A stretch of DNA of 64,000 bases from Methanobacteriota archaeon (GCA_043799545.1 JAZDNO010000006.1:96001-160000), one strand, 5' to 3'. Numbered from the stretch's first letter, positions 22,766-49,080 are shown. Program-made: numbers and translations. The notes: generated by a model from the letters alone, not told the origin.

Positions 22766-24139
22766 ATGCCTGAAGCGCAGAAGCCGAGCGGTTTTGAGAA
22801 AGCCTCGACGGTGCTGGCCCCGACGCTCAACACCCTCGTTTTTATAATAATCGCCCGTGAGCTGGGCGCCGAATCCCTGGGCTCCGTGGCGCTGTATCTG
22901 TCTTTGGCGGCTTGCATAACGCTCTCCTTCGACCTCGGTCACGCCTGGGGAGGTGCGGGCGGGAGATCTTTGCGCGCGCTGGTGCACCTCTCGTTCACGA
23001 TGGCGGGTTTCGTGCTGGCGGCCGTGGGATGGCTGGTCGTCGGATGCGACTGCATCATCGCGCTTGGGCTTTACGCCGCTTACCACGGCGCGACTTCCGC
23101 TGCAATCGCCATTTCGCAGGATGGCGGAACCTCGGCGAAGGCGGGGCTGGCAGACGGAATCTTGCGCGTCGCAATTCTCGCGCCGCTTATTTACGTATTT
23201 TGGGAAGGGGGATCAGGACCCTTGACCATTCCCATAGCTTTCATCTTCGCGGTTGGGGGGTTGGCGGCGCTGGCCGTTGCAACAGCTAGATACACTCCGC
23301 TCAGCATCTCGGCTGCGCGCTCCGAGCTGGGCGAGGCATCTGGCGGCGCGTTTGCTTTCTCGATTCTCGCCGGCCTGATGATGTGGGTCGACAAGCCCTT
23401 GCTTTACCTCCTGGATGGAGAAGTCTCGCTCGGTTTCTACTTTGCAGTCCAGCGAACAGTTGTCTTCATCGGTGCGGCTGGCGTGGTGATTGCTGGCATG
23501 GTGTCGGGCAGGTTTTCTTTGATTGACCGAGAAGCGGGCAAGCGTTTGGCGACGCTGATGGAAAGGTACGCCTCGTTGTGCGTCATCCCCATGGGAGCGT
23601 TCTACATCGCCTTTTCCAGGCAAATCGTGGCGACCTTCTTCGGGATGGGCTATGCCGCGCACCACGCGCTCATGTATCCGATGGCGTTTGCCGGAGTTTT
23701 TACCGCACTGGCATCTCCGTCTTTATCGTGGCTTGCGAGCGATTCCAAGTGGCGCGCACTTGCCGTTGCCGCTGGCTCAGCACTAACGGTATTAGTATGC
23801 CTCGCAGTGGCGTTGCTGGAGTCGGAGATCATCGAAGACCCGTCGACAGCGGCGGCGGTCGGCTGCGCCATTTCATCGCTCGCTCTCTACGTGTCGGTGC
23901 GCGCGATTCTCCTGCGCGATGGCGTGCGGATGCATGGAAACATGCCCAAGCACGTCGCATGCGCCGTTGGAATGGCCATCTCTTTGCATTGGGTCTCAAC
24001 CAGCTTCGCAGCATTGGGGCTCGCAGAGCTGGTGTTTTTAGCGCTCGCAGGCGTCCTTGTCTACGGTTTGCTGCTCTACCTCTTCGGAGAATTCATGCAG
24101 GGTGAATACGGCGAGTTCAAGGCATTGCGCGGGGTGTGA
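22766..24139 (+). CDS. Oligosaccharide flippase-like (MOP superfamily) membrane protein
   Basis: 12-14 hydrophobic segments; IARELGAESLG and WVDKPLL...LGFYFAVQR patterns typical of Wzx-like flippases. Confidence 0.65.
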   Translation: MPEAQKPSGFEKASTVLAPTLNTLVFIIIARELGAESLGSVALYLSLAACITLSFDLGHAWGGAGGRSLRALVHLSFTMAGFVLAAVGWLVVGCDCIIALGLYAAYHGATSAAIAISQDGGTSAKAGLADGILRVAILAPLIYVFWEGGSGPLTIPIAFIFAVGGLAALAVATARYTPLSISAARSELGEASGGAFAFSILAGLMMWVDKPLLYLLDGEVSLGFYFAVQRTVVFIGAAGVVIAGMVSGRFSLIDREAGKRLATLMERYASLCVIPMGAFYIAFSRQIVATFFGMGYAAHHALMYPMAFAGVFTALASPSLSWLASDSKWRALAVAAGSALTVLVCLAVALLESEIIEDPSTAAAVGCAISSLALYVSVRAILLRDGVRMHGNMPKHVACAVGMAISLHWVSTSFAALGLAELVFLALAGVLVYGLLLYLFGEFMQGEYGEFKALRGV

Positions 24140-24145
24140 GGAATC

Positions 24146-24586
24146 TCATTTGCAGCCCTTGCAGCTGTCGTGCCCGTCTTGATGGCAATCGATGTCGCGC
24201 GGGGCTGGCCTGGGCTTCCCATCTTTCCTGGCTCTGTAATCCTCGATTGCAGCGTGTAGGGCATCCGCGGCGAGGTTCGAGCAGTGCATCTTGATTGGCG
24301 GCAGTCCGTCAAGCGCTCCCGCGACGTCTCCGCGCGTTATCCTGATGGCTTCGTCGAGCGTCTTGCCCTTTGCAAGCTCCGTGGTCATGCTGCTGGTGGC
24401 AATTGCGGCGGCGCATCCGAAAGTCTTGAACTTGATATCCTCAATGACTCCGTCCTTCACCTTGATGTACATTGTCATCAGGTCGCCACAGGTCGGGTTT
24501 CCCACCTCTCCGACCCCGTCCGCATCCGGGATCTCGACGACGTTCTTCGGGTTCTTGAAATGCTCCATGACCTTTTCGCTGTACAT
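24146..24586 (-). CDS. iscU: IscU/NifU Fe-S cluster scaffold
   Basis: YSEKVMEHFKNPKN, GNPTCGD, FGCAAAIA, KMHCSNLA. Confidence 0.95.
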   Translation of the reverse strand: MYSEKVMEHFKNPKNVVEIPDADGVGEVGNPTCGDLMTMYIKVKDGVIEDIKFKTFGCAAAIATSSMTTELAKGKTLDEAIRITRGDVAGALDGLPPIKMHCSNLAADALHAAIEDYRARKDGKPRPAPRDIDCHQDGHDSCKGCK

Positions 24587-24688
24587 ACTCCTCCCAAAGG
24601 AGCCGTCTCATTAATAATTTCCCCCGCCGCGCAAAGGAATGGATTGGCAACCGTAAAATACTCAGACCTCGATGTGGGCTCAGCCTAG

Positions 24689-25585
24689 GTGATCGTCATG
24701 GATGAGATGAGCATATACATAGACGGAAAGTACTACCCGAAAGCGCAGGCCAAGATATCGGTTTACGACCACGGCCTGCTTTACGGGGACGGGATTTTCG
24801 AGGGAATTCGAATATACGACGGTAATATATACCGATTGAATTCGCATCTTGAGCGGCTTTACGAGTCTGCCAAGACGATAATGCTGACAATCCCTATGAG
24901 CATCGATGAGCTGAGGGATGCGTGCGTCGCGACCGTGAAGAAGAACGGCCTCCGCGATGCGTACATACGCCTGATGGTCACAAGGGGAGTGGGGGATCTG
25001 GGCCTTGACCCGAGGAAGTGCCCCAGGGCGACCGTGATAATCATCGTGGACCGCATCAAGATGTTCCCTGCGGAGTATTACACCAAAGGTTTGGAGGTCG
25101 CCACCGTGCCGACGACCAGGAACATGTCCGACGCCCTCAACCCGAAGATCAAGTCGTTAAACTACCTCAACAACGTCATGGCGAAGATAGAGGCGAACAA
25201 CATGGGCGTGCCAGAGGGTCTATTGCTCAGCGCCCAGGGCTATGTGACCGAGGGGACGGGGGACAACATCTTCATAATCCGGGACAAGATACTCCAGACT
25301 CCGCCGACGTACGACGGCGCTCTGGCCGGCATAACCCGCAGCTCCATCGTCTACATGGCCAAAGACCTGGGCTACACATGCGAAAAGAAAACCCTGACCC
25401 GCCACGACCTCTATAACGCTGAGGAGTGCTTCTTGACCGGGACAGCCGCAGAGCTAATCCCGGTCGTCAAAATCGATGGCAGGGTCATAGGAACGGGAAA
25501 GCCCGGGCCGATATTCAAGAAGCTTCTCGCAGAGTTCAGGAAGCTGACGAAGGTGGATGGTTACAGGGTGTACAAGAAGAAATAA
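24689..25585 (+). CDS. ilvE: Branched-chain amino acid aminotransferase
   Basis: LLYGDGIFEGIR, KSLNYLNN (PLP Lys), EGTGDNIF, LAGITR, LTGTAAE. Confidence 0.95.
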   Translation: MIVMDEMSIYIDGKYYPKAQAKISVYDHGLLYGDGIFEGIRIYDGNIYRLNSHLERLYESAKTIMLTIPMSIDELRDACVATVKKNGLRDAYIRLMVTRGVGDLGLDPRKCPRATVIIIVDRIKMFPAEYYTKGLEVATVPTTRNMSDALNPKIKSLNYLNNVMAKIEANNMGVPEGLLLSAQGYVTEGTGDNIFIIRDKILQTPPTYDGALAGITRSSIVYMAKDLGYTCEKKTLTRHDLYNAEECFLTGTAAELIPVVKIDGRVIGTGKPGPIFKKLLAEFRKLTKVDGYRVYKKK

Positions 25586-25590
25586 TTAGG

Positions 25591-25672
25591 GCCACTGGAG
25601 GGATTTGAACCGACGACCAGTTGGATAGCAATGCTATATGTCCCCTATGGTGGTCTAAGTTCAAATCCCATC
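25591..25672. repeat. Hairpin unit downstream of tRNA-Thr made of sense and antisense copies of its T-arm/3' end
   Basis: 25591-25611 equals 25700-25720 (21 nt exact); GGGATTTGAAC (25600-25610) and GTTCAAATCCC (25659-25669) form an 11-bp inverted repeat; inner GACCA/TGGTC stem. Confidence 0.85.
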
Positions 25673-25698
25673 AAGCTAGGAGCGATATAAATAAATTA

Positions 25699-25772
25699 AG
25701 CCACTGGAGGGATTTGAACCCCCGACCTGCTGATTACAAATCAGCCGCTCCACCGAGCTAAGCTACAGTGGC
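25699..25772 (-). tRNA. tRNA-Thr(UGU), intronless, CCA not encoded
   Basis: GCCACTG-TA-GCTTAGCTCGGTGGAGC-G-GCTGA-TTTGTAA-TCAGC-AGGTC-GGGGGTTCAAATCCCTC-CAGTGGC cloverleaf. Confidence 0.97.
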
Positions 25773-25818
25773 GTTTTATTGCTTATGAATGGATTTGTAT
25801 TTCCGACGGACTCCCGAA

Positions 25819-25911
25819 GCTGAGCCGGAACAAATGCATTGTGGCTCAGCGAGGCACAGACCTTCACCAACCGGAAGGCTGGTCTAGTGCACCGAGCTAA
25901 GCTACAGTGGC
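25819..25911. repeat. Hairpin units upstream of tRNA-Thr made of sense and antisense copies of its 5' end/D-arm
   Basis: 25890-25911 equals 25751-25772 (22 nt exact); GTGGCTCAGC (25841-25850) is an imperfect inverted copy of GCTAAGCTAC (25896-25905); perfect 8-bp IR at 25819-25826/25843-25850. Confidence 0.85.
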
Positions 25912-25965
25912 ATTATACCAGAGCGAAATCATAGGAAACGTTTAAAGTTAATCATTGTTTCGCTG

Positions 25966-26955
25966 TTGCTGATGAAAAAATTCGAAAGATGCATTAGGAA
26001 AGACGAATTCGCCGCAGCCTGGTCCGAGCAAGAAACGGAGACCGAGCGCGCTTTCGTAATCATCCTGAGGACGTCCGGCTGCGCTTGGGCCGCCAGGGGC
26101 GGGTGCCTTATGTGCGGCTACTCGTCCGAATCGCTCCAAGGCGTGTGCCAGGAAGACATCGAGGCGCAGGTGGCGAAGGCGCTGGCGAAGTACTCCGGCG
26201 AGGCCGTTGTCAAGCTCTACACATCCGGGAGCTTCCTCGACGAGAAGGAAATCCCCGACCCAGCGAGGATATGGCAGACGTTGCTCGATGCTGGCGCGCG
26301 CAGGCTTCTGGTGGAATCCCGCCCGGAATTCGTCGAGCCGTCCTTATCCGACATCGAGCCGTTCAAGGGGAAACTCGAAGTTGCCATGGGACTGGAAACG
26401 GCCAACGACAGTGTGCGCGAACGCTGCGTGAGGAAGGGATTTACCTTTGCGGATTTTTCCGCGGCATCCGAATCGCTGAGGGGCGCTGGCTCGACCGTGC
26501 GCACCTACCTCCTTCTCAAGCCACTTTTCCTGGGGGAGGCCGACGCGATGGCGGACGCTCTCTCCTCGGTCGGCACGGCGTCCGCGCATTCTGACGTCAT
26601 TTCACTCAACCCTGTCAACGTCCAGAGGCGGACTCTCGTGGAGCGAATGTGGCGCCGGGCTGAATATAGGCCTCCGTGGCTGTGGTCTATTGCGGAGGTG
26701 CTCTCGAAGGCGGAAAAGGGGAAGGCGCGTTTGGTCTCATCTCCGTCGGGAGGCGGCACGCAGCGCGGCGCTCACAATTGCGGGAAATGCGACGCCGTCT
26801 TCCTGGATGCCGTTTCAAAATATTCCCTGACCCAGGATGCGGATGTTTTCCGCGGGCTCGGATGCGAGTGCTCGGAGCTATGGCGGGACATTCTCGAACT
26901 GGAAAGCCGGGCGATGACGACCACAGATTTGGAGCGCACTTCCTGGCGCGGCTAG
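25966..26955 (+). CDS. Archaeosine biosynthesis radical SAM protein RaSEA (TIGR01210-like)
   Basis: ILRTSGCAWAARGGCLMCGY extended Cys motif, KLYTSGSFLD, ESRPEF, YRPPWLWS, GAHNCGKC. Confidence 0.85.
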   Translation: MLMKKFERCIRKDEFAAAWSEQETETERAFVIILRTSGCAWAARGGCLMCGYSSESLQGVCQEDIEAQVAKALAKYSGEAVVKLYTSGSFLDEKEIPDPARIWQTLLDAGARRLLVESRPEFVEPSLSDIEPFKGKLEVAMGLETANDSVRERCVRKGFTFADFSAASESLRGAGSTVRTYLLLKPLFLGEADAMADALSSVGTASAHSDVISLNPVNVQRRTLVERMWRRAEYRPPWLWSIAEVLSKAEKGKARLVSSPSGGGTQRGAHNCGKCDAVFLDAVSKYSLTQDADVFRGLGCECSELWRDILELESRAMTTTDLERTSWRG

Positions 26956-26992
26956 CGAACCGGTTATATCCGGGCAGGGCATCACCGGCGGC

Positions 26993-27481
26993 ATGACGCT
27001 CCTTTCAGACGCGGAAATCAAGCGGTGGATGACCGATGGCTCGCTCCGCATCGCGCCGTTCGCCGAGAAGAACCTCACTCCCAACGGCTACGACCTCACC
27101 ATCGAGGAAGTGCTGATACCAGGCCAGGCCAAAGCGTTCGACGTGACTGTCCCACCGATGTCACGCTTCGTTGTGAGCACCAGGGAGCGGGTGGAGCTGA
27201 ACGGGCCATTCACTGCGCAGCTGTGGATAAGGACGACATGGGCTCGGCGCGGCGTGCTGGCATCTTTTGGCAGAATAGACGCCGGTTTTAAAGGGACACT
27301 CACCCTGGCGGCATTCAACGCGTCGGCCGAGCCGCTGCCGGTCAGGGCTGGGGAGACTTTCGCGCAATTAGTCTTTGAGCCTCTGGCCGGCGGCGTTGAA
27401 AAGACTTACGCCGAGCGCTCGGGGAATTACCAGGACCAGAAAGGAGTGACCCTGGCAAAAGACAAATCTCGGGTGGTTTGA
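26993..27481 (+). CDS. dcd: dCTP deaminase
   Basis: LSDAEI, TPNGYDL, RTTWARRG, IDAGFKGTLTL, FAQLVF. Confidence 0.85.
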   Translation: MTLLSDAEIKRWMTDGSLRIAPFAEKNLTPNGYDLTIEEVLIPGQAKAFDVTVPPMSRFVVSTRERVELNGPFTAQLWIRTTWARRGVLASFGRIDAGFKGTLTLAAFNASAEPLPVRAGETFAQLVFEPLAGGVEKTYAERSGNYQDQKGVTLAKDKSRVV

Positions 27482-27495
27482 CAAGCCACGTTATC

Positions 27496-28488
27496 TCAAT
27501 CTCTTTTTAAATCGTATGCAACCACCGAAGAGCCAGGCGAATATGGGTGGACGATGTTCCACGACCAGCATGTGGCTCCCCGGGCGAGAGCCTCAAGCTC
27601 CCTGGCGCGCCCCCCCTCCGCACCCTTGTCGACAACCTGATAGACGTGAAGCCATGCGCCTGGCGCCGAGGCCTTTAACGCTTCTGGCAGGAACTCGTGA
27701 GCGCTGTGCGGCAGGTTCATGATTATCCGGTCCGCAGGACCGAGCTTCGGGGCCAGTTCCCGGGCGTCCCCGTGGTGCGCGCTAACGGAGCCCGCCTTGT
27801 TCCTGGCGATGTTCGCGCGCAGGAATTCAATGGCGTGGGCGTTCGCGTCCACGCAGGTGACCGACGAGGGCTTGGCTTTCTTCGCGATGAGTATTGAGAA
27901 CGGGCCGACCCCGCAGAACATGTCCAGCACGCGCTCCCCCTTTGCCACGAGCTGGGCGATTCGCCACCGCTCGTTCGCGAGCCTGGGAGAGAAATAGACC
28001 TGGGCCAGGTCGAGCTCCAGCTCGATGCCGTACTCCCTGTGGACGGTGCGCGTGCTCTGCCTTCCGGCGACGACCTTCAGGGATCGGACGCGAAGCTCTC
28101 CCTCTACGCCCTGGTCAAGCGCTGCGGAGGCCAGGTTCCTGTTCGCCGCAAGCATGGCCTTTCCGATCTCAGTCGCGTGCGGTGCAAGCTCGTCAGGGAG
28201 TTTGAAGATGGCAACGTCCCCGACGATGTCGAACGAAGACGGCAAGAGCGCCTTCAACCCATCGGGAACTTCAGCCACATCCTTGTAGCTTTTGATACGG
28301 CTGGGAGCTGGTTCGAAATCGTCCTCGCCAACAGGGTAACCCATTGCGGGCCCATCGAGGACGGGCATGTAGACATGGGTCCCATCGGACTTTATGCTGA
28401 GGTCTCCTCTCAGTAGCCTTGCCTCTGAAAGCTTTTTACGGGCGGACTCGCCTTCCCCTCTGGGCACGATAACGCATCGGGCTCTCAC
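27496..28488 (-). CDS. trm5: tRNA m1G37 methyltransferase, Trm5/Met-10+ family
   Basis: SFDIVGDVA, YFSPRLANER, DMFCGVGPF, IIMNLPHSA. Start placed at GTG 28488 to avoid overlap with dph5. Confidence 0.85.
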   Translation of the reverse strand: MRARCVIVPRGEGESARKKLSEARLLRGDLSIKSDGTHVYMPVLDGPAMGYPVGEDDFEPAPSRIKSYKDVAEVPDGLKALLPSSFDIVGDVAIFKLPDELAPHATEIGKAMLAANRNLASAALDQGVEGELRVRSLKVVAGRQSTRTVHREYGIELELDLAQVYFSPRLANERWRIAQLVAKGERVLDMFCGVGPFSILIAKKAKPSSVTCVDANAHAIEFLRANIARNKAGSVSAHHGDARELAPKLGPADRIIMNLPHSAHEFLPEALKASAPGAWLHVYQVVDKGAEGGRARELEALARGATCWSWNIVHPYSPGSSVVAYDLKRD

Positions 28489-33375: not shown

Positions 33376-33557
33376 AGGCCGTACTTGAACTGCCGACCTT
33401 CGACGGAAGGTGTGATTGGCGGTCAGCTGTGTTCAAGCCCTATGTTCGAGCATCGAATACGCTCCGATGGTGGCAAATAAATCCGGACTTGAACCGCAGA
33501 ATCGCTTCGTTTAGCAATCAAGTTCGATGATTCTGCAAGTTCAAGTCCCCTGCGGCA
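33376..33557. repeat. Two tandem hairpin units downstream of tRNA-Phe bounded by inverted copies of its T-loop
   Basis: ACTTGAAC 33383-33390 / GTTCAAG 33431-33437 and GGACTTGAAC 33485-33494 / GTTCAAGTCC 33539-33548; inner stems GCAGAATC/GATTCTGC and GCCGACC/GGTCAGC. Confidence 0.85.
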
Positions 33558-35633
33558 TGAATAGCTGAAAAAATAAAACCTAATGCCGCAGGCCGGACTT
33601 GAACCAGCGACAACTTGATCTTCAGTCAAGCACTCTCCCAGCTGAGTTACTGCGGCACCGTCTCCGGGAAGCCCGCCAGCGTTGCGCTCCTCTGTGGCGG
33701 AGGGGGTTGATTGGACTGCCCCTACATTAAGCTTGCCTTCCCCACCTCTGGTGACCTCGGTGATATTCTCAACAAAGCTCCAGTTCACGGCGTAGATTTC
33801 CGCCCACGTCCCGCGGGTTTCGTTCTCGAACGAGGCGGCCAATACGAACGGCTCCTCCCTCAGCATCGCGAGCGTCTCGTCCGAGACCGGGGGAAGGCTC
33901 ATGCCGGCCAGGGAGACCCCGCTGACGCGCATCACGTCGTCCACGAGCACGCAGCCCACGCGGGTCCCGTTCGTTCCGTTTAGTACGTCCATGCAGTCGC
34001 GCCATTGTGTGGCGTTCCAGATGGCGGCGCCTCCCTCGAACGTCGCCCGGAGTCCCATGGCCTCCAGCTGCGTTCCGAGCCTGTGGTCGGTTGCGACAGA
34101 ATATCCAGGGGTGGCGTTCTGGCCAAGCCAATCTAGCGCCGCCAGGTCTTCGTCGCTTATCCGTTCGTCGAAGCCAATCTCAGGCGCCAAACGGTAGCTT
34201 GCCAGAGCGCTCCCGACAAGCAATGCGACGACCAGGACGGGGACGACGGCGCGCGAACCGACCCTCCAACCCTTTTCATCGATCCAGACGCCCCTGCCCT
34301 CCCACTGTTGCCGTGTGTCCAAGGATGCTGGCCGCAGGTCCGAAATGAATGCCGCATCGCTTCCCCCGACCGTTCCTCCACTCTTGGGCAGGAAGGGGAT
34401 GAACCTTCTGGTGGTCTCCATGGAAAAGGCCCTCTCAATGCTTGGCGCAAGCAGGAAAGCCATCCCCATGGCCGCGAAGAGCGACAGTGGCTCCATCAGG
34501 TACTCGAGGTGCCTCTCCGGCAAAAGAATGTCGCTGCCGACTGCGAGCGCAACCGCCATAGAGAGTCCAACCGCCGCGAACCATCCTACGATTTCAGAAC
34601 CCCTTTCAAGCATGGCGGTCCTGCTCAACCCAACAGCGCCGAAGGCCAGGATGGCGAAGACAGGCACAGAATAGACCGCGAGCATGGGAGTGGCCCTCGA
34701 TGCTATGGCCGGGCTGTCGGCGATTACCAGCAATGCAATCGTGAAGGTAAGGGCTGAGAACGCGAGTATGAATTTCATTTTTTCATAGCCTCGCGACACG
34801 GGGTCGGAAAGCCAATCCAAGACCGACCTGAACCGTCTCCTGAGAACCAGCAAAGCCGCGGCGAACACCGCATATGCCAGAACGATTGCCGGCCAGGGGA
34901 GCCTGGTTCCTGTTTTCACGAAGGAGAGCACCTCGGTCGCGACGAGCCCCCAGTAAGCGAACGCGAGACATGCGGCGAACGCGATGTATGCTAGCTGGGC
35001 CTTCGAGGGGGCTCGGCGCTGAAGCGCAACCATAGCCGGAAGGGACGCCAGATACAGGTAGGTTGTGAAGTGGTGGGAGCCCACCAGCAGAGCCGTCGAA
35101 GCGATGAGGAGCGCCCAGTCCGCCCTGCCCATCGAGGGCTTGGTCAGCAGGAACATGCATGCCAGGAAGAAGAAATGGCCCATCGTCAAAGGAGCCGCGT
35201 GGCTCGTCTGGTAGACGTGGACGGAATTGACAGCCAAGAGAGCCATGGCGAGAAGCGCGGTTCGGCGCCCCATTCCCGCATTCCTGGCTATGAAGTACAC
35301 GAAGGCCACGGATAGCCCGCCGAACACAGGCGCGACCTTCGTCATCAGCCAGAACGCGTCCGAACCCGTGAGCAGGTGCGGTAATGCCGTAACCAAATAG
35401 AGCACCGGAAAATGCTCGTACGATTGCCCCCATCCGATATATGGCGGGAACAGCGCCCCGTTGTTTATGACCGAAGATGTGAGACCGTAATAAATTCCCA
35501 TATCGCTTCCCCATCCAGAATATATCCAGGCTGGAACTGAGCGAAGGGCGATTGCGAGGGCGCAGAGCCCGATGAAAGCGAGGGCGTGCGGATTTCGCAG
35601 ATGCCGCCCGAGAAGCGCCCCCGTTCGAGACAT
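33423..35633 (-). CDS. Multi-pass membrane protein, GT-C/PMT-like glycosyltransferase architecture; frame runs through tRNA-Phe
   Basis: SGWGSDMGIYY acidic loop after TM1, YEHFPVLY, >12 TM helices, LPERHLEY, soluble C-terminal domain. Start set at ATG 35633; true 3' end uncertain. Confidence 0.7.
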   Translation of the reverse strand: MSRTGALLGRHLRNPHALAFIGLCALAIALRSVPAWIYSGWGSDMGIYYGLTSSVINNGALFPPYIGWGQSYEHFPVLYLVTALPHLLTGSDAFWLMTKVAPVFGGLSVAFVYFIARNAGMGRRTALLAMALLAVNSVHVYQTSHAAPLTMGHFFFLACMFLLTKPSMGRADWALLIASTALLVGSHHFTTYLYLASLPAMVALQRRAPSKAQLAYIAFAACLAFAYWGLVATEVLSFVKTGTRLPWPAIVLAYAVFAAALLVLRRRFRSVLDWLSDPVSRGYEKMKFILAFSALTFTIALLVIADSPAIASRATPMLAVYSVPVFAILAFGAVGLSRTAMLERGSEIVGWFAAVGLSMAVALAVGSDILLPERHLEYLMEPLSLFAAMGMAFLLAPSIERAFSMETTRRFIPFLPKSGGTVGGSDAAFISDLRPASLDTRQQWEGRGVWIDEKGWRVGSRAVVPVLVVALLVGSALASYRLAPEIGFDERISDEDLAALDWLGQNATPGYSVATDHRLGTQLEAMGLRATFEGGAAIWNATQWRDCMDVLNGTNGTRVGCVLVDDVMRVSGVSLAGMSLPPVSDETLAMLREEPFVLAASFENETRGTWAEIYAVNWSFVENITEVTRGGEGKLNVGAVQSTPSATEERNAGGLPGDGAAVTQLGECLTEDQVVAGSSPACGIRFYFFSYSCRRGLELAESSNLIAKRSDSAVQVRIYLPPSERIRCSNIGLEHS
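33584..33656 (-). tRNA. tRNA-Phe(GAA), intronless, CCA not encoded
   Basis: GCCGCAG-TA-ACTCAGCTGGGAGAGT-G-CTTGA-CTGAAGA-TCAAG-TTGTC-GCTGGTTCAAGTCCGGC-CTGCGGC-A. Confidence 0.97.
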
Positions 35634-42318: not shown

Positions 42319-45300
42319 TCAGCTCTGCTGCTGGCCGCCTTCCTTCTTCTCTTCCTCGCCCGGCTTCTTCACGACCACGCGCTGCATCGGCATCGGCGTC
42401 CTGACTATCTTCTTGACGACCGGCCTAGGCTCGCCTGGCTGACCTCCGGCCTGCTGCTGCGCGGGTGGCTGCTGAACGGGCGGCTGCGGGGCTGCGACGG
42501 GTTGCGGCGAAGGGGCTCTCTGCTGGGGCTGCGGCGGCGTTCCGGACTTCCTCTCGAAGTCGTTTCCGCAGACCGGGCATATGGGCTCCTTCACGTCCAC
42601 CTGCATGTTGCAGTTCGGGCACTTCTTCGTCTCCTTCGGAGCCGTTGCAGGAGCGGGCACGGCCGTCGGTTTGGCCGCGGCTACCGGGGTTGGCGTAGGC
42701 ATCTTGCCCTTGGGGGCCTCGGCCTTCAGCCCGGTCCCGCACTTGTGGCAGACCCTGCCAGAGATGTTGTTGGGGGTTCCGCACTGCGGGCACGGCTTGG
42801 AGCCCATCTTGCGCATCTCCTCCTCCTCCCTGAGCCACTCGTCGAAGGTTATGAAGGTCGGCTGCGCCTTCCACCAGTTCTGGAACTGCTCGTCGGTCAT
42901 CTTGGGGCCCAGCGTCTTCTTGGCCTGGACCTTTATCTGGCCGAGCATCTCGTCGTACTGGGCACGCATCTTCACCTCGTAGCCCTCGCCCTCCTCGTCT
43001 CCGGTGGTGAACTCGGCGCCGCACTCCGGGCACTTCTTCGCATCGATTGGTATCCAGGCGGAGCAGACGCTGCATTTGGCGGTCTCGCTTTCGAACTCGA
43101 TTCCGCACTTGGGGCACTTGTGCGCCCCGTCGGGTATGAACGCTCCGCAGCTGCCGCACTCGACGAGCTTGCCTATGCCGACGAAGTATGTGTATGCCGT
43201 GAATCCGCCCACGACCGCCACCACGATGATGATTATGATGACGATGTAAATCCAGAGCGGAGTCGGAGTCGGCGCTGTCTCGAACTGCAATGCAACGATG
43301 ACGTCTTCCGTGTTGGTGGAGTTGAGGGTGATGGTGTACTGCCCCTCGGCATCCGCGGGAACGGCGAGTCCTCCGTTGAACACACCGTCCGACCCGGAAG
43401 TCAGCGTCGTCTGCCTGATGATTGCCGTGCTTCCCTCGGCTCTCAGGATGACCGTTATCACGACCCCGCTTGCTGGTGTGCTCAGTGCGAGGTTGATTAC
43501 CTCTCCAGCCACGTTGAGGTTGATTCCGGGTTCCAGAATGACCCCCTGGGAAGGAGACGTAACATGGATTTGGAAGTCCGGCATCCTCACCGTGAAGTTC
43601 TTTGAGGCGTTGTTGTCCGTCTCATTGAATTCGTTGACCAGGCCGTATGCCGTGTTCACGTCCCACCCCCCGTCGAGGATTGCTATGAGGTTGTGGTCTC
43701 CGGCTGTGTTGACGCCGCTGCATTGTATGGTGACGGTCGAGCTGGCATTCGCGGGCAAAAGATTGATTTTCGCAGAGCCGAGCCTCGAGGCGTTGACAAT
43801 CGACATTATGTTGCGCGTGACGATTGTGAAGTTGTAGACAGTAACATTTGCAAGGTACTCCTCGATATCGGCCATGAACGAGTCCCCGTCGAACAGGTCG
43901 ACGGTGACGTTGTCGGCATCCCACAGCCCATTGCTATAGTTCACTATGGGTTTGGCCGTGTTGTGGACGGTGACGTTGACCTGGAACCCTTTCATGGTTA
44001 TGATTTCTTCCGTGAGCACGACGATGTCCGTTTCGTTCAATGTGAGGTCTGGCCTCGTGTCAACGACAGTGAAGTTCTCCGTGAGCTGGTTGCTCAGACC
44101 TGGAACCCCCTCGTAGATGTCCGTCGATGCGACCGCCGTTATCTGGTGGACCCTCTCCCGGTCGTTCGTCCTCGCCATCCAAAGCACGTCGGCGTCCCCC
44201 GCGATTCCGCTGGGCAGATACGCGATGGTGTCGGCCGGCCCGATGAGGTTGGCAACAAGTATGGGGCCGTCGTAGAACCTGACGATCACGGAGCTGGCTG
44301 GCGCCCCGCCGAGGTTGTGGACCCTGGCGGTGACCTTGACAGCCGTGTTGTTTTCCACGGGCGAGGTCTTGTCAAAGATGAGGTCGCTGATGTATATATC
44401 CGAGTACTCGAGCACGTCCAGGACGCCGGTCACGTTGTTGTTCAGGGTCGAGGTTTCATTGACCTTTCCCCACTGGTCGATGACGACCGAGATGTTGAAC
44501 CTGCCAGCGCGGCGCGGGGTCCAGTCGACGCTAACAGTCTCCATGTTGCCGTTGCCCAGGATGGTGACGTTCACGACTCCCAGCCTTGTCTGCTGGGATG
44601 GCGTGCCGTTGTAGAACGTGACGTTGAACCCAATGGCAGGTATGTCGCCGATGTTGTGCACGTTGGCGTTGATTGTGAGCTCGTGCCCTATGACGTACGG
44701 GGCGGGGGAGTAGTAGAGGTCGTATGTGTACGGGAATGCAAGGTCAGCGAGGCCGATGACCGTCATGTTCAGCCAGCCCCAGTTGTCATTCTCGTTGAAT
44801 TCGGTGATGTAATCGAACGGGTCGACCATGACGCTGATGGTGTGGTTGCCAAGCTTGTCGAAGGACCAGGGCATCGCTATATTCTGGACGCTTCCAGCCG
44901 CGATATCAACCGGGCTGGAATAACCGATGGTTTGTCCAGTCGTCTCGTCCCTGAACCGCACGATGACGTCGTAGGCCGTCGTTATGCCGTTTGCGTTCGA
45001 CACGCTGGTCCAGATGGTGACCTGCTCTCCGCGTCCAGGCAATGTGGGAATCATCCACACAGGCGGGTCCAGGTCGGGCAAGATTCCCGTCATCCGTATC
45101 TGAAACTCCGGGTAGTTGGATGCAGTGACGAGCGACGGGTAGGGGGTCAGGGCCAGGGTGCCGTTCTCCCATGCCGGGTAGGTCAAGTACGTCGCCCTTA
45201 TGATGTAGTTGCCTACGAAGAAGCTCGTTGGATACACGGTAGGAGTTAGGATGTCGCTAAGAGCCGCGAACGACACCTTTCCGTTCGTGCCAGTCGTTCC

Positions 45301-48300
45301 AGCCCTGTGGATAATCGGGGCCCAGACCGGGTCGTTGAATGCGTAGCTCAGATCTATCGCGACGTTGGGCACGGAGTGCGGGTATAAATCTTGCCCGTCC
45401 AGGGCGTCGATTGTGAGCCAGCGGTAGATGTATGCGGTCGCCGTGTCGTATGTCCGTATTGTCGATGCCGAGACCGCGGTGAGGTCGTAGCGCGAGCTGC
45501 CCCTGATGTTGAGCGTGCCTGTGAACGTCGTGTTCCCGGCAATCATCCTCACGTTGGAGCCGGTGCTGCTGTCGAAGAGGCCCATCACGCTTGTCCCATT
45601 CAAGTTGACTATGACGTTGGCGCCTGAGGCGTAGATGTTGATGTTGGGGCCGAAATAGCTTCCTGAGGATGCGCTTAGCCGGGCGTTGTCCTCGAGATAG
45701 AACGGGGTCGATGGGTTGGCCGAGACGATGGAGCCGCCGTTAAGAGTAATGCTTCCCGACTCCCTCACCTTGATGCTGAATGGCGTTCCAGTAGTCTGGA
45801 GGATTGCCAGACTGCCGTTGATGATGAGATTTCCATTCTGCTCCACGAGGACGAAGCCTCTCCTTCCCACTGCCCCGTTGATATAGTACGGGCTGTTCGC
45901 ATTGTTGACTATCAGGTCCTGCGAAACGTTGTAGATGGCTATGTCGATGTAAGCCTGGTTATCCGTTTGCAAACCAATTGGCGCGTTGACTGTGACGTAT
46001 ATCCTGTGGAAACCGAGGACGTTCGGGACCCAGGGGTTTATCGAGACGACCTGGTTGCCGTTCGCCGGCACGTCAGTGACGGTTCTGGTTCCAATGACGT
46101 TCGACGTGCTGTCGAGCGCGAAGACGACGTCGCACGTTCCGGTGGCTACGACGCCTCCGAGGTTCCTGACCGTGGCCGTTATGCTTGTGGACACGCCCTG
46201 GACCGGCGTGGGGTCGCCGACTACGATGTCCGCAGCGGCTATCGCCAGGTTCGGCTTGGGCTGCACGATGTATTGCTGGCTGGCCAGGTTGCCTACGTAT
46301 TCGTCCACCAGCTCGGGTACGTCGTAGTTGGGGTCCACCCAGACGTAAAGTCTGTACGTGCCGTCCAGCGGCGGGGCGTATTGTATCTCGGAGTTTGTCC
46401 AATCGGGAAGCCAGATGCCGTCGCCGACATCGATGTTGTCTGTGCCGATGAGATGCGTGGACGCGTTCACGTCCAGTATTTCGTCGCCGTTCCAGTCCGG
46501 GCCGCCCCAGCTGAGATTGCCCCAGTAGAAGTGGACCGGGACGCCGGTGGCGTTCGCCGTTCCCACGTTGTGGATTATGGCGGTGACGGTGAGCGTCGTT
46601 CCGAAGGAGACTGTGTTACTTGGCGGCGTGATTGATATGTCGCTGGTGTCGACAAGCAGGTCGGGCATGAACGGCCTGACGTAGATGGACTGGCCCGGAG
46701 AGTTGGTGTTGTTCAATTCCTCCGTGCTGTTTACAGGTCCCTCGTAGACGTTTTTACCATTGTCCACCGTGACTTTGATGTAGTGGGTTCCGCTCGGTTT
46801 GGCGGTCCACGGGATGCTCTGGTTTATGAAGCTACCGGCTCCAAGCGAGGCATAATTTTGTGTGAAAATCGTAGTCGTTGTAGGGCCGCTGATGTCCTCC
46901 ACGAGCACATCGAAGTTCAGAGCGGTGCTGCTTCCGACGTTCTCGATGATGGCAAATATCGTGATGCCTTCATCCTGGTCCGGAGCCGGGTTCGAGAACC
47001 ACACCGGTCCGGGAATGAGGTCCGGCAACGGGACCGCCAGGCCATCGATGACTAGGAGCGGTACCGACGAATCGTCAACGAGAGCATCGGAGTTCTTCTC
47101 CGCGCGGATGTCCGGGAATGGCGCGAAGCTCCTTTTTATACTCTTAGAGAAGCCACCGGAAGTCGCGGTAAACTTGTAATTGCCAATGAACTGGCTATTC
47201 GGCATGGTGGTTGTATTAATAATGTCGGTTATTACGGGCAGGCTCAATTGTCCGCTGCGGTCCGTCTGGGTGTAATTCAGTCCCGTCACCTCGAGAGCGG
47301 AAATTCTGTCCATATAGGCGATGATGCGCTTGTCCGAACTCGACCCATCGGTGAAGTTGTTGGCGGCTTTGATGTAGTTGATGGCCGTTAGATTCAGGTA
47401 ATCTCCCTTGGCCGTCACGGTGGCATCGTTGACCGGGTTGCCGTTCATGTCCAGAACCGGGGTGCTGATCCAGCGGTAGTAGAATACCTGGCTCGTCGCA
47501 TCGAAGAGGTTGAATGGGCTCTGAGGCGGGAGCGGCAGATTGGTAATCGGGTCAATCGGCAGCTCGAGACGGTCGTCAACGCCAAGGCCATCATCGTTTT
47601 GCGAAACGGTAACATTGTACATGTAAACGTTGCTGGTCCCGTTCAGGCGCAATTTATTGTCTTTGCCGACGATGTAGTCCGGGTTCAGATAATCGACATC
47701 TATGAACGAGTTCATAATCGATAGTTCCGAGTTATCGACTGAGATGTAGCCTGAAGGGGCGGGGTCGATTTGAGTAATATTTAGTATCAATTTATCAAAA
47801 GAAATAGCTGCGGGTACACCGTCATCGTCACAATTTTTATAGTAAACATCCAAGCTTGAGGCAATATTAATTGTGTTTACTCCTAATGAAAACACATCAA
47901 TAATTTCTGGTGTGAGTGAACCATCGTCTTCCGAGGGCTGAAACAAGCTAATATTATTCATACCTTCGTCGATGCTAATGTTAACCCACTCATCCCAAAC
48001 ACTTGGCATATTGGTGTAATTATAATTAGTTGAATCATATACAATTTCTATATCAATTCCAATAATCGGCCAGCCAGGTAGCGTTGAGGTATCAAATCCA
48101 TCAATTCCTAATTTTGCAGGGGGATTTGTTAAAGTATAGTATGCTCCATCGGTTATATTTAAATCATATGTATTTGGTTCACCAGAAGTGTCAACAGCAT
48201 CTTTTGAGTTGGGAAACACTTGCGTCGTAATAGTTTTCGGAGGGCATATACCCTTCGTCTGCTCATACAAATTGTCTATTCTGCTGTCCGCTATTGTCAC

Positions 48301-49080
48301 GTCGGCGCAATCGAAGAACCTGATGACAGGGCAGTCGTCTTCCATGTCCTTCAAGCCGTCAAGTATGCCGTCGGCCAGGTCTTCTGCATTGAGATTGGTG
48401 TAGTATTTTGCCAGTGCGTCCTTGTAGTCCTCATCGCCTACGATGGGGCTCCACTTGAAATCGTCCAACCATCCCGGAGCCTCGTAGTCGGCATCGTTTT
48501 CCGACGGATCTTGGTTTGTTATCCACGAGTCGTTGATGTACGTTATCGTATTTCTTATCTGGAGGTCGCCCGGGAAGGCGATTACGGAGTTGTCCGTGAG
48601 CGTCATCGTTGAGTCGTTGACATACATGCCGAATTTAACGTATGGGTGAAGCATTCTGGCATCGGTCACGATTGTTGCGTTGCTCATCAGAAGGGTGCTG
48701 CTGGTGTCTACCGTGAGTTTGAAATGGTGATCATCCGATGTGCCTTCGATGCCGTCCAATCCGTTGTCCTGAGTGAAGTCAAGGGTGGCGTTGGTAATTC
48801 TCAATTGGCCACCGTTCCTGACGATGATGCTGCGATCTGCATAGTAGATGCCATAGTTTTCAGTAATCGGGGACCACATGTATTCGGTGATGTTGAAATA
48901 ATCGTTGTTAGGGTCCGCATCCCCCGCATCGATTATCATCTCGTCCCAAATTCCCTGAATTTCAGGTTGTTCTTCCTTGGACCCCACCGCCATCCCCAGC
49001 AGTCCGGGGACTACCAGACAGAGCACGATCCCAAGGCATATCACACGCTTCTGGGCCACGTGGCCCGAGAGAGTCGTCAT
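42319..49080 (-). CDS. Giant cell-surface protein, 2253 aa: signal peptide, beta-helix-like region, multiple CARDB-like Ig domains, C-terminal TM, cytoplasmic zinc ribbons and Pro/Gln tail
   Basis: N-terminal hydrophobic leader; repeated (L)PDL...I.A.IHN.G...A..V.V.FY...VD....I.E.NE.NN CARDB pattern; TM LWIYIVIIIIIVVAVVGG; 8 CxxC after the TM; RBS GAGGGGTGA. Confidence 0.88.
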   Translation of the reverse strand: MTTLSGHVAQKRVICLGIVLCLVVPGLLGMAVGSKEEQPEIQGIWDEMIIDAGDADPNNDYFNITEYMWSPITENYGIYYADRSIIVRNGGQLRITNATLDFTQDNGLDGIEGTSDDHHFKLTVDTSSTLLMSNATIVTDARMLHPYVKFGMYVNDSTMTLTDNSVIAFPGDLQIRNTITYINDSWITNQDPSENDADYEAPGWLDDFKWSPIVGDEDYKDALAKYYTNLNAEDLADGILDGLKDMEDDCPVIRFFDCADVTIADSRIDNLYEQTKGICPPKTITTQVFPNSKDAVDTSGEPNTYDLNITDGAYYTLTNPPAKLGIDGFDTSTLPGWPIIGIDIEIVYDSTNYNYTNMPSVWDEWVNISIDEGMNNISLFQPSEDDGSLTPEIIDVFSLGVNTINIASSLDVYYKNCDDDGVPAAISFDKLILNITQIDPAPSGYISVDNSELSIMNSFIDVDYLNPDYIVGKDNKLRLNGTSNVYMYNVTVSQNDDGLGVDDRLELPIDPITNLPLPPQSPFNLFDATSQVFYYRWISTPVLDMNGNPVNDATVTAKGDYLNLTAINYIKAANNFTDGSSSDKRIIAYMDRISALEVTGLNYTQTDRSGQLSLPVITDIINTTTMPNSQFIGNYKFTATSGGFSKSIKRSFAPFPDIRAEKNSDALVDDSSVPLLVIDGLAVPLPDLIPGPVWFSNPAPDQDEGITIFAIIENVGSSTALNFDVLVEDISGPTTTTIFTQNYASLGAGSFINQSIPWTAKPSGTHYIKVTVDNGKNVYEGPVNSTEELNNTNSPGQSIYVRPFMPDLLVDTSDISITPPSNTVSFGTTLTVTAIIHNVGTANATGVPVHFYWGNLSWGGPDWNGDEILDVNASTHLIGTDNIDVGDGIWLPDWTNSEIQYAPPLDGTYRLYVWVDPNYDVPELVDEYVGNLASQQYIVQPKPNLAIAAADIVVGDPTPVQGVSTSITATVRNLGGVVATGTCDVVFALDSTSNVIGTRTVTDVPANGNQVVSINPWVPNVLGFHRIYVTVNAPIGLQTDNQAYIDIAIYNVSQDLIVNNANSPYYINGAVGRRGFVLVEQNGNLIINGSLAILQTTGTPFSIKVRESGSITLNGGSIVSANPSTPFYLEDNARLSASSGSYFGPNINIYASGANVIVNLNGTSVMGLFDSSTGSNVRMIAGNTTFTGTLNIRGSSRYDLTAVSASTIRTYDTATAYIYRWLTIDALDGQDLYPHSVPNVAIDLSYAFNDPVWAPIIHRAGTTGTNGKVSFAALSDILTPTVYPTSFFVGNYIIRATYLTYPAWENGTLALTPYPSLVTASNYPEFQIRMTGILPDLDPPVWMIPTLPGRGEQVTIWTSVSNANGITTAYDVIVRFRDETTGQTIGYSSPVDIAAGSVQNIAMPWSFDKLGNHTISVMVDPFDYITEFNENDNWGWLNMTVIGLADLAFPYTYDLYYSPAPYVIGHELTINANVHNIGDIPAIGFNVTFYNGTPSQQTRLGVVNVTILGNGNMETVSVDWTPRRAGRFNISVVIDQWGKVNETSTLNNNVTGVLDVLEYSDIYISDLIFDKTSPVENNTAVKVTARVHNLGGAPASSVIVRFYDGPILVANLIGPADTIAYLPSGIAGDADVLWMARTNDRERVHQITAVASTDIYEGVPGLSNQLTENFTVVDTRPDLTLNETDIVVLTEEIITMKGFQVNVTVHNTAKPIVNYSNGLWDADNVTVDLFDGDSFMADIEEYLANVTVYNFTIVTRNIMSIVNASRLGSAKINLLPANASSTVTIQCSGVNTAGDHNLIAILDGGWDVNTAYGLVNEFNETDNNASKNFTVRMPDFQIHVTSPSQGVILEPGINLNVAGEVINLALSTPASGVVITVILRAEGSTAIIRQTTLTSGSDGVFNGGLAVPADAEGQYTITLNSTNTEDVIVALQFETAPTPTPLWIYIVIIIIIVVAVVGGFTAYTYFVGIGKLVECGSCGAFIPDGAHKCPKCGIEFESETAKCSVCSAWIPIDAKKCPECGAEFTTGDEEGEGYEVKMRAQYDEMLGQIKVQAKKTLGPKMTDEQFQNWWKAQPTFITFDEWLREEEEMRKMGSKPCPQCGTPNNISGRVCHKCGTGLKAEAPKGKMPTPTPVAAAKPTAVPAPATAPKETKKCPNCNMQVDVKEPICPVCGNDFERKSGTPPQPQQRAPSPQPVAAPQPPVQQPPAQQQAGGQPGEPRPVVKKIVRTPMPMQRVVVKKPGEEEKKEGGQQQS

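Follow-up and report, generated by a model that had tools for sequence, protein, structure and literature searches.

The window, a stretch of 64,000 nt (contig C10:96001-160000), comes from an archaeal metagenome-assembled genome (MAG) of 2.06 Mb in 31 contigs, 94% complete, which is referred to below as G000. It contains an intact tRNA-Thr(UGU) gene at 25699-25772 on the minus strand, called by ARAGORN and matched over the full length of the Rfam tRNA model (RF00005) with 67.5 bits; its sequence is identical in G001, an independently assembled MAG of the same genus. The gene stands between exact copies of its own two ends, as had been claimed from the sequence, and a repeat search agrees for both copies. 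The outer 5' copy (25890-25911, also minus strand, found in addition by the flank scan described below) duplicates the 22 nt of tRNA positions 1-22, that is, the acceptor 5' strand, the D-stem 5' strand and the D-loop. The outer 3' copy (25591-25611, same strand) duplicates the 21 nt of positions 53-73, from the T-loop to the 3' end. By our own arithmetic the chance expectation for such a 21-mer is about 1e-8 in 64 kb, and no further copy of the outer 21- and 22-mer words is found in the whole 2.06-Mb genome.

The remaining features, all on the minus strand, are arranged around these copies. About 30 nt ahead of the outer 5' copy is an A/T box (P1, 25941-25950), which lies inside a 21-nt block identical between G000 and G001 and has the same form and distance as the A/T boxes ahead of other tRNA genes of this genome; it is presumably the original promoter. 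After the outer 5' copy come two hairpins, A (25854-25890) and B (25813-25853), the latter built from an invariant 4-bp base with one U-G pair, a bulge of 2-3 nt and a covarying upper stem. These are followed by a second promoter-like A/T box (P2, 25793-25802) that ends about 20 nt ahead of the tRNA; a box at this position is present in most of the aligned modules, is degenerate in G001, and would serve as a promoter carried by the module. The upstream module thus measured is 117 nt between the two 5'-end copies.

The downstream module is of about 87 nt. It starts directly behind the gene with a T-rich tract (25686-25698), read from the sequence as a putative inner terminator; such tracts are found 3' of nearly all tRNA genes in the genome. 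Next is a long fold-back hairpin (25600-25672), identified by repeat search, folding and alignment, which consists of an inverted copy of the T-arm (25669-25659), an internal stem and the first half of the outer 3' copy, which forms its 3' arm. The two arms are perfectly complementary over 11 nt (25659-25669 with 25600-25610), with the 48-nt interior that had been described for the T-loop pair. The outer 3' copy extends back to the anticodon loop as a weaker similarity (77% over 53 nt), and on reading its sequence its T-stem is broken. It is followed by an outer T-rich tract (25574-25590) that overlaps the last codons and the stop codon of the convergent ilvE gene (Aminotran_4). This tract is probably the original terminator, by analogy with the clean case of tRNA-Met, where the orthologous terminator comes after the outer copy. 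As had been noted, ilvE ends 5 nt from the outer 3' copy, with its stop at 25585. No ORF exceeding 46 aa is fully contained in the interval bounded by the outer copies, and in a search of 24000-27500 against Rfam, in which RtT (RF00391) has no match, the tRNA was the sole passing family, all other hits having E >0.05.

Folding of the 331-nt region, proposed as a check by the sequence-only reading, gives a structure better than that of shuffles (z = -4.8), with the downstream hairpin at z = -3.5. Two of the smaller pairings proposed at the same time fared less well. The outer 5' copy was said to be locked against an antisense partner of the D-arm; this pairing is of 7 bp with one G-U and is not above chance. 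It appears in the single-sequence fold, is missing from the paralogous and orthologous copies (alignment A1), and the segment of the supposed partner is in relatives the conserved hairpin B. At 25792-25799 there is indeed an inverted 8-mer of the anticodon loop, but about 0.4 matches are expected by chance (our own estimate); it lies inside the A/T box, and in the paralogues at tRNA-Thr(CGU) and tRNA-Asn it does not track the anticodon.

Some further features of the locus and the window may be recorded here. In the 3' arm of the downstream hairpin, 19 nt (25601-25619) are identical to positions 45-63 of tRNA-Met(CAU), not of tRNA-Thr. This may be a coincidence, T-arms being alike, or a relic of the unit's origin. 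A CCA is encoded after tRNA-Thr(UGU) in G001 (locus L002, contig G001:C91), and the outer 3' copy there has a CCA too; in this window the gene has none and the outer 3' copy has a decayed one. A Trm5/TYW2 gene is encoded near the locus. The nearest homologues of ilvE (24689-25585) beyond close relatives are bacterial (Bacillota, Verrucomicrobiota; 53-60% identity), suggesting an old lateral transfer. On the minus strand at 42319-49080, a single ORF of 2253 aa covers the one stretch of low GC in the window, at 47-49 kb (GC 47-49%, compared with about 60% elsewhere).

The flanks of all 42 tRNA genes of the genome were scanned for exact self-copies with a minimum length of 11 nt, over 230 nt on the upstream side and 200 nt on the downstream side. 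The scan had been suggested together with the original description, and it shows that the tRNA-Thr(UGU) locus is not isolated: 31 of the 42 genes have self-derived copies, compared with 4.3% for mismatched pairs in which tRNA and flank belong to different amino acids. Direct copies of the 5' end are found upstream in 8 cases and of the 3' end downstream in 18, and inverted copies of the 3' end downstream in 17. This supports one of the earlier suggestions, a tRNA-derived repeat family. At tRNA-Thr(CGU), on another contig, the full arrangement of 329 nt is found again with 81% identity. At tRNA-Asn only the upstream module is present, opening with the first 21 nt of tRNA-Asn itself, and at tRNA-Thr(GGU) only the downstream module, with compensatory changes in its hairpin. 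By our count, direct copies on both sides occur at 4 of the 42 genes, where independence predicts 3.4. It follows that the nesting of the tRNA is the result of two modules that happen to share one gene. The independent distribution likewise rules out a coupling between the upstream and downstream modules; the complementarity between the tail of one and the head of the other is a 6-mer, seen in this genome only.

Covariation in relatives, also named at the outset as a check, was analysed using an alignment (A1) of eleven upstream-module instances from six genomes and three tRNA species, all with the order 5' copy, hairpin A, hairpin B. In hairpins A and B, which were delimited from this alignment by alifold and by pair counts, 96.7% of cells are paired, compared with 83.5% in shuffles (0/500), and there are 29 double-change cells where 9.7 are expected (0/500); in slid controls pairing is at most 45%. 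Of the nine pairs of hairpin A, six have changes on both sides. The hairpin pairing is thus kept through two-sided changes, and the structure is constrained.

A covariance model (R1) built from A1, which also recovers hairpin B, has matches in 16 of 22 genomes of the order, across four families, with Thr, Asn, Ser-like, Ile, Lys and Met tRNA genes as hosts. In a class-wide sample it matches 12 of 20 genomes of the order, as against 2 weak matches in 131 others. Strong matches lie 27-38 nt ahead of a tRNA gene and start with an exact copy of 20-22 nt of its 5' end; matches farther away are distal members of tandem arrays, with decayed copies. Five loci with a match and no ARAGORN tRNA call were inspected (L071, L059, L066, L072 and L070). 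The modules at L071 and L059 precede tRNA genes with unusual introns, and those at L066 and L072 run to the contig end. The gene at L071 (G003:C4) is tRNA-Lys(CUU)-like and that at L059 (G013:C367) tRNA-Met-like, with apparent introns in the T-loop or at two sites; both genes are missed by ARAGORN and by Rfam.

The downstream unit, aligned separately (A2), is 90.7% paired, compared with 83.4% in shuffles (0/500), and its lower stem tracks the T-arm of each tRNA, for example that of tRNA-Phe. Folding energy is uninformative as to the strand, because both strands fold equally well. The selected structure may thus be RNA or single-stranded DNA, and only the conserved U-G pairs favour the tRNA-sense strand. 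The window itself holds a second example: tRNA-Phe(GAA) (33583-33657) is followed on the minus strand, at 33381-33558, by a tandem pair of fold-back units like that of tRNA-Thr in type. In the proximal one the tRNA's own 3' part is copied in inverted form over 20 nt and directly over 13 nt; the distal one is decayed.

Thirty tRNA loci of G001 were paired and compared with those of G000. The gene for tRNA-Thr(CGU) is 100% identical in the two genomes. In G001 the orthologous promoter and leader run directly into the tRNA, whereas in G000 the orthologous promoter is followed by a 21-nt outer copy, a 106-nt module and then the tRNA. The same pattern of a filled site in G000 and an empty one in G001 is seen at tRNA-Asn. 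On the other side of the gene, tRNA-Met(CAU) of G000 is followed by an 85-nt downstream unit and a 16-nt duplication before the orthologous terminator is reached, whereas in G001 the gene is bare. Further differences are found: G001 has at tRNA-Phe an extra unit of another type, placed between the tRNA and an older, more decayed unit, and at tRNA-Thr(CGU) and tRNA-Thr(GGU) the downstream units of the two genomes differ in type. A filled site thus differs from an empty one by the module plus a target duplication of 16-21 nt, with the old promoter or terminator left outside. Discrete units with precise boundaries, a duplicated end, signals of their own and the newest copy nearest the gene imply site-specific insertion, or precise excision; the empty sites of G001 could be precise deletions between direct repeats rather than the ancestral state.

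At tRNA-Thr(UGU) both modules are present in both genomes, which allows their conservation to be set against a neutral yardstick. Four-fold sites of the flanking genes are only 0.52 (ilvE) and 0.43 (a radical-SAM gene) identical between G000 and G001, whereas the intergenic region is about 80-85% identical (our count, alignment A3), and the outer copies are unchanged (22/22 and 21/21). Hairpin A shows 4 compensatory changes between the two genomes, hairpins A and B together have by our count 5 compensatory double changes, and in the structural alignment no pair of one orthologous row is broken in the other. At such divergence a neutral scar could no longer be recognised; the structures and outer copies are either selected in place or homogenised. 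This clashes with the suggestion, made in the original description, that the copies are scars of repeated integrase attack, if scars are taken to be neutral. We note also that, since P2 is degenerate in G001, the tRNA there is probably transcribed from P1 through the module, and the upstream module of G001 would then be a 5' leader released by RNase P.

On balance we favour the proposal that the tRNA-Thr(UGU) gene has received two separate, gene-less insertion modules, members of a family restricted to this lineage and directed at tRNA gene ends, and that these are retained under constraint; we regard this as moderately probable. The original argument that a single att duplication could explain one terminal copy, and not both ends, is borne out to the extent that two independent insertions are called for, one per end. 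The upstream module would have entered at the segment from the D-loop to the 5' end, duplicating positions 1-22, leaving the old promoter ahead of the outer copy, and bringing, together with two hairpins, a new promoter-like box that lies about 20 nt ahead of the intact gene. The downstream module would have entered at the segment from the T-loop to the 3' end, duplicating positions 53-73, and would have brought the T-rich tract directly 3' of the gene together with the long fold-back hairpin, of which one arm would be the inverted T-arm copy and the other would run into the outer direct copy; the old terminator would then come after that copy. Each insertion would rebuild the gene end and supply expression signals, and the tRNA would therefore stay functional. 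The insertions would be made in trans by a site-specific recombinase or transposase, the modules themselves encoding none, and the modules would share a transcript with the tRNA, from which RNase P and tRNase Z would cut them away. Their long-term conservation at this locus implies that they are now retained for something, possibly as a structured leader and trailer.

Integration at tRNA genes is a real process in this genome. A 20.6-kb element lies at tRNA-Trp (C12:53839-74695), with its integrase gene adjoining the tRNA and a 17-nt repeat of the 3' end at its far side, and older mini-units are displaced behind this repeat. The genome encodes three Y1 transposases and four tyrosine integrases, and three of the latter adjoin tRNA genes. 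No recombinase or transposase was found in or beside the modules, and the flanks of the four integrase and three Y1-transposase genes have no similarity to them. One of the Y1 genes (IS200/IS605 type, C25:29957-30582) is about 200 nt before tRNA-Leu(GAG), with a partial copy of the 5' half of that tRNA between the two. An IS200/IS605 partner for the modules was rejected on the dissimilarity of the Y1-gene flanks. Neither Cas1 nor reverse transcriptase was found in the 94%-complete genome. A casposon or Cas1-made insertion was accordingly set aside, the duplication being in addition 21 nt where 14-15 bp at tRNA 3' ends would be expected, as was a SINE-like retro-element.

Some features sit badly with insertion by any known route. 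Inverted and direct copies, both specific to the tRNA, fit no known mechanism when taken together. The same applies to the ends of the duplication, which follow the tRNA boundary and the D- or T-loop and not a fixed length. A target-duplication mechanism accounts for the direct copies, not for the inverted ones. A plain integrase model explains the 3' repeat from T-loop to end, but not the constant tiny size or the inverted copies, and it fails where a module at a new tRNA has the acceptor strand of that tRNA in both copies. A bolder version, which we put forward tentatively and regard as somewhat improbable, is that the modules are a new kind of element, unlike those moved by integrase, DDE, HUH or Cas1 enzymes and unlike retroelements, spread or renewed by templating on the target, the leader and trailer RNAs having been co-opted for tRNA maturation or for protection of the gene. 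Each new copy would then gain the neighbouring tRNA end in direct and inverted form, bounded by the mature terminus and by the D- or T-loop.

The main rival to the insertion of modules is that they originated as host-functional leaders and trailers, and the two are partly compatible. According to this rival, the modules are RNA elements of the tRNA transcription unit selected by the host, a structured 5' leader and 3' trailer that arose by local partial duplication and act in processing, folding control, stability, termination or insulation, the self-copies mimicking or competing with the arms of the tRNA; mobility plays no part. The conservation in place far above the neutral yardstick, the compensatory changes, the unchanged outer copies and the conserved U-G pairs on the tRNA-sense strand are all as it would predict, as are the probable transcription from P1 through the module in G001, where P2 is degenerate, and the persistence of the family across four families of the order. 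Indeed the strong conservation, which includes the loop of the downstream unit, fits host function better than a selfish element, although the two are not exclusive. As a complete account it is nevertheless rather unlikely. Sister genomes with identical tRNAs manage without the module, orthologous tRNAs of G000 and G001 bear units of different types, units pile up in tandem with their distal copies decayed, and one module core is found at more than one tRNA, always joined to the end of the tRNA concerned, for which local duplication alone is insufficient. There is also no match to an Rfam family. A guide RNA of the C/D-box or H/ACA type was considered separately and rejected: no boxes were seen on reading the paralogous modules, and the sole hint from Rfam is a snoRNA model with E = 4.5.

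It might also be supposed that the outer copies are ordinary attL/attR scars, tRNA ends displaced by a virus or plasmid with a tyrosine integrase, the interior having been lost to leave a CIME-like remnant. The 3' duplication, from T-loop to 3' end, does correspond to the T-loop sublocation of integration, which is classical according to Williams (2002), as cited in PMC9897764. The integrase element at tRNA-Trp with its 17-nt repeat shows that such events take place in this genome, and tandem accretion of decayed elements is known for bacterial CIMEs (PMC5704250). We nevertheless consider this quite improbable. The modules keep the same length and content from locus to locus and from genus to genus, with no ragged remnants; their hairpins show covariation and conservation; the real integrated element has ends unlike the modules; three quarters of the tRNA genes are affected; and integrase recombination does not yield inverted self-copies. 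Moreover, reasoning from the paralogues at tRNA-Asn and tRNA-Thr, an attP borne by the element would bring the wrong acceptor strand to a new tRNA.

The sequence-only reading had further proposed that the two outer copies could pair with each other as a second acceptor stem around the tRNA. Taken literally this makes the locus a nested, split or intron-bearing precursor, cut by the splicing endonuclease or by RNase P/Z to give the tRNA itself or a second tRNA-like RNA. A 7-bp pairing of the outer acceptor strands is present in the minimum-free-energy fold of the whole region, and tRNA introns in odd positions exist in the order, but the proposal is very hard to sustain. The inner gene is complete, contiguous and of normal tRNA score, and the broken T-stem spoils the outer 3' copy. 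Upstream and downstream copies are distributed independently among the tRNA genes, the modules occurring singly at other tRNAs, and the acceptor strand decays in the outer copies of distal tandem units. Loose candidates for bulge-helix-bulge motifs number 10, compared with 8.1 in shuffles, and none is at the junctions (25890/25889 and 25751/25750). A split, permuted or intron-containing tRNA was therefore rejected. Finally, chimeric joining of tRNA-containing reads, conceivable in a metagenome-assembled draft of 31 contigs, can be dismissed almost completely, since the same layout, with substitutions and compensatory changes, is found in the independently assembled G001 and at paralogous loci of the same genome. 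An unsupported assembly, or ordinary att ends with no conserved hairpins elsewhere, had been named in advance as grounds for abandoning the arrangement; instead the layout recurs in the same-genus MAG and conserved hairpins are found elsewhere.

A full-text literature search did not find small self-matched modules around archaeal tRNA genes described; it yielded only the tRNA fragments of classical integration (PMC9897764) and bacterial CIME accretion (PMC5704250). The family, which is found next to the majority of tRNA genes in an order of uncultured Thermoplasmata, is thus apparently undescribed, and comparison with the nearest known systems is instructive. The modules resemble att sites and CIMEs in that a direct repeat of the tRNA gene end brackets an insert and leaves the gene intact (PMC5704250; PMC9897764), the newest insert is next to the gene with older ones pushed outward, and the 3' repeat covers the segment from T-loop to 3' end. 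They differ in being only about 90-120 nt long and of constant design, with covarying hairpins and no integrase, in using both gene ends, in carrying tRNA-specific inverted copies, in being found at about three quarters of the tRNA genes, and in having hairpins conserved well above neutral in place of a variable, decaying interior. The tRNA-Thr(UGU) locus accordingly has the end repeats of that class (22 nt and 21 nt), but nothing of an integrase or of the remnant of a large element.

In E. coli, the 178-bp repeats of tyrT (RtT RNA, RF00391) are units downstream of a tRNA, each with a copy of its 3' end. In this they are similar to the downstream modules, but there is no match of sequence or model, and the E. 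coli case is a single operon with no upstream counterpart and no inverted copies, whereas the modules are genome-wide and matched to their own tRNA. MITEs, REP and BIME sequences and IS200/IS605 derivatives are, like the modules, small, gene-less and hairpin-rich, vary in presence among close relatives, and are presumably moved in trans. However, the modules lack element-terminal inverted repeats among the pairs listed, which are either internal to the modules or match a tRNA-derived segment to its complement, and their duplication, of 16-24 nt, is anchored to tRNA landmarks and is not of the fixed short length of the MITE/DDE type. Elements of the IS200/IS605-REP type make no duplication at all; hairpins and three Y1 genes are present here, yet the Y1 flanks share nothing with the modules.

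The split, permuted and multi-intron tRNAs of archaea (Nanoarchaeum, Caldivirga, Thermofilum; PMC3978253) likewise have pieces of tRNA next to structured non-tRNA sequence, with acceptor strands able to pair. Here, by contrast, the gene is complete and contiguous, the extra pieces are redundant, and the bulge-helix-bulge motif is absent. In plant mitochondria, tRNA-like stem-loops known as t-elements serve as processing signals for RNase P and RNase Z. They too are acceptor- or T-arm-like helices outside tRNAs, and a similar role could explain the release of leader and trailer. However, t-elements are not copies of the ends of the neighbouring tRNA, and they are not insertion-polymorphic.

What is new in this analysis is the alignment, by computational tools, of filled with empty sites, the use of a neutral yardstick to reveal long-term constraint at the tRNA-Thr(UGU) locus, the evidence that the two modules are independent of each other, and the restriction of the two-hairpin module to one order. 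At a practical level, such fragments confuse tRNA gene finders and predictors of att sites. Genes for tRNA are classic landing sites for mobile DNA, the known cases being kilobase-sized elements with an integrase. Here, by contrast, an entire archaeal order has tiny, gene-less, constrained modules at both ends of most of its tRNA genes, each tailored to its own tRNA and equipped with signals resembling a promoter or a terminator, and sister genomes differ by their gain or loss. Mobility of the modules would imply an unrecognised route of DNA insertion, one by which the target is copied in both orientations; as functional RNAs, they would represent a new layer of tRNA expression and processing in archaea.
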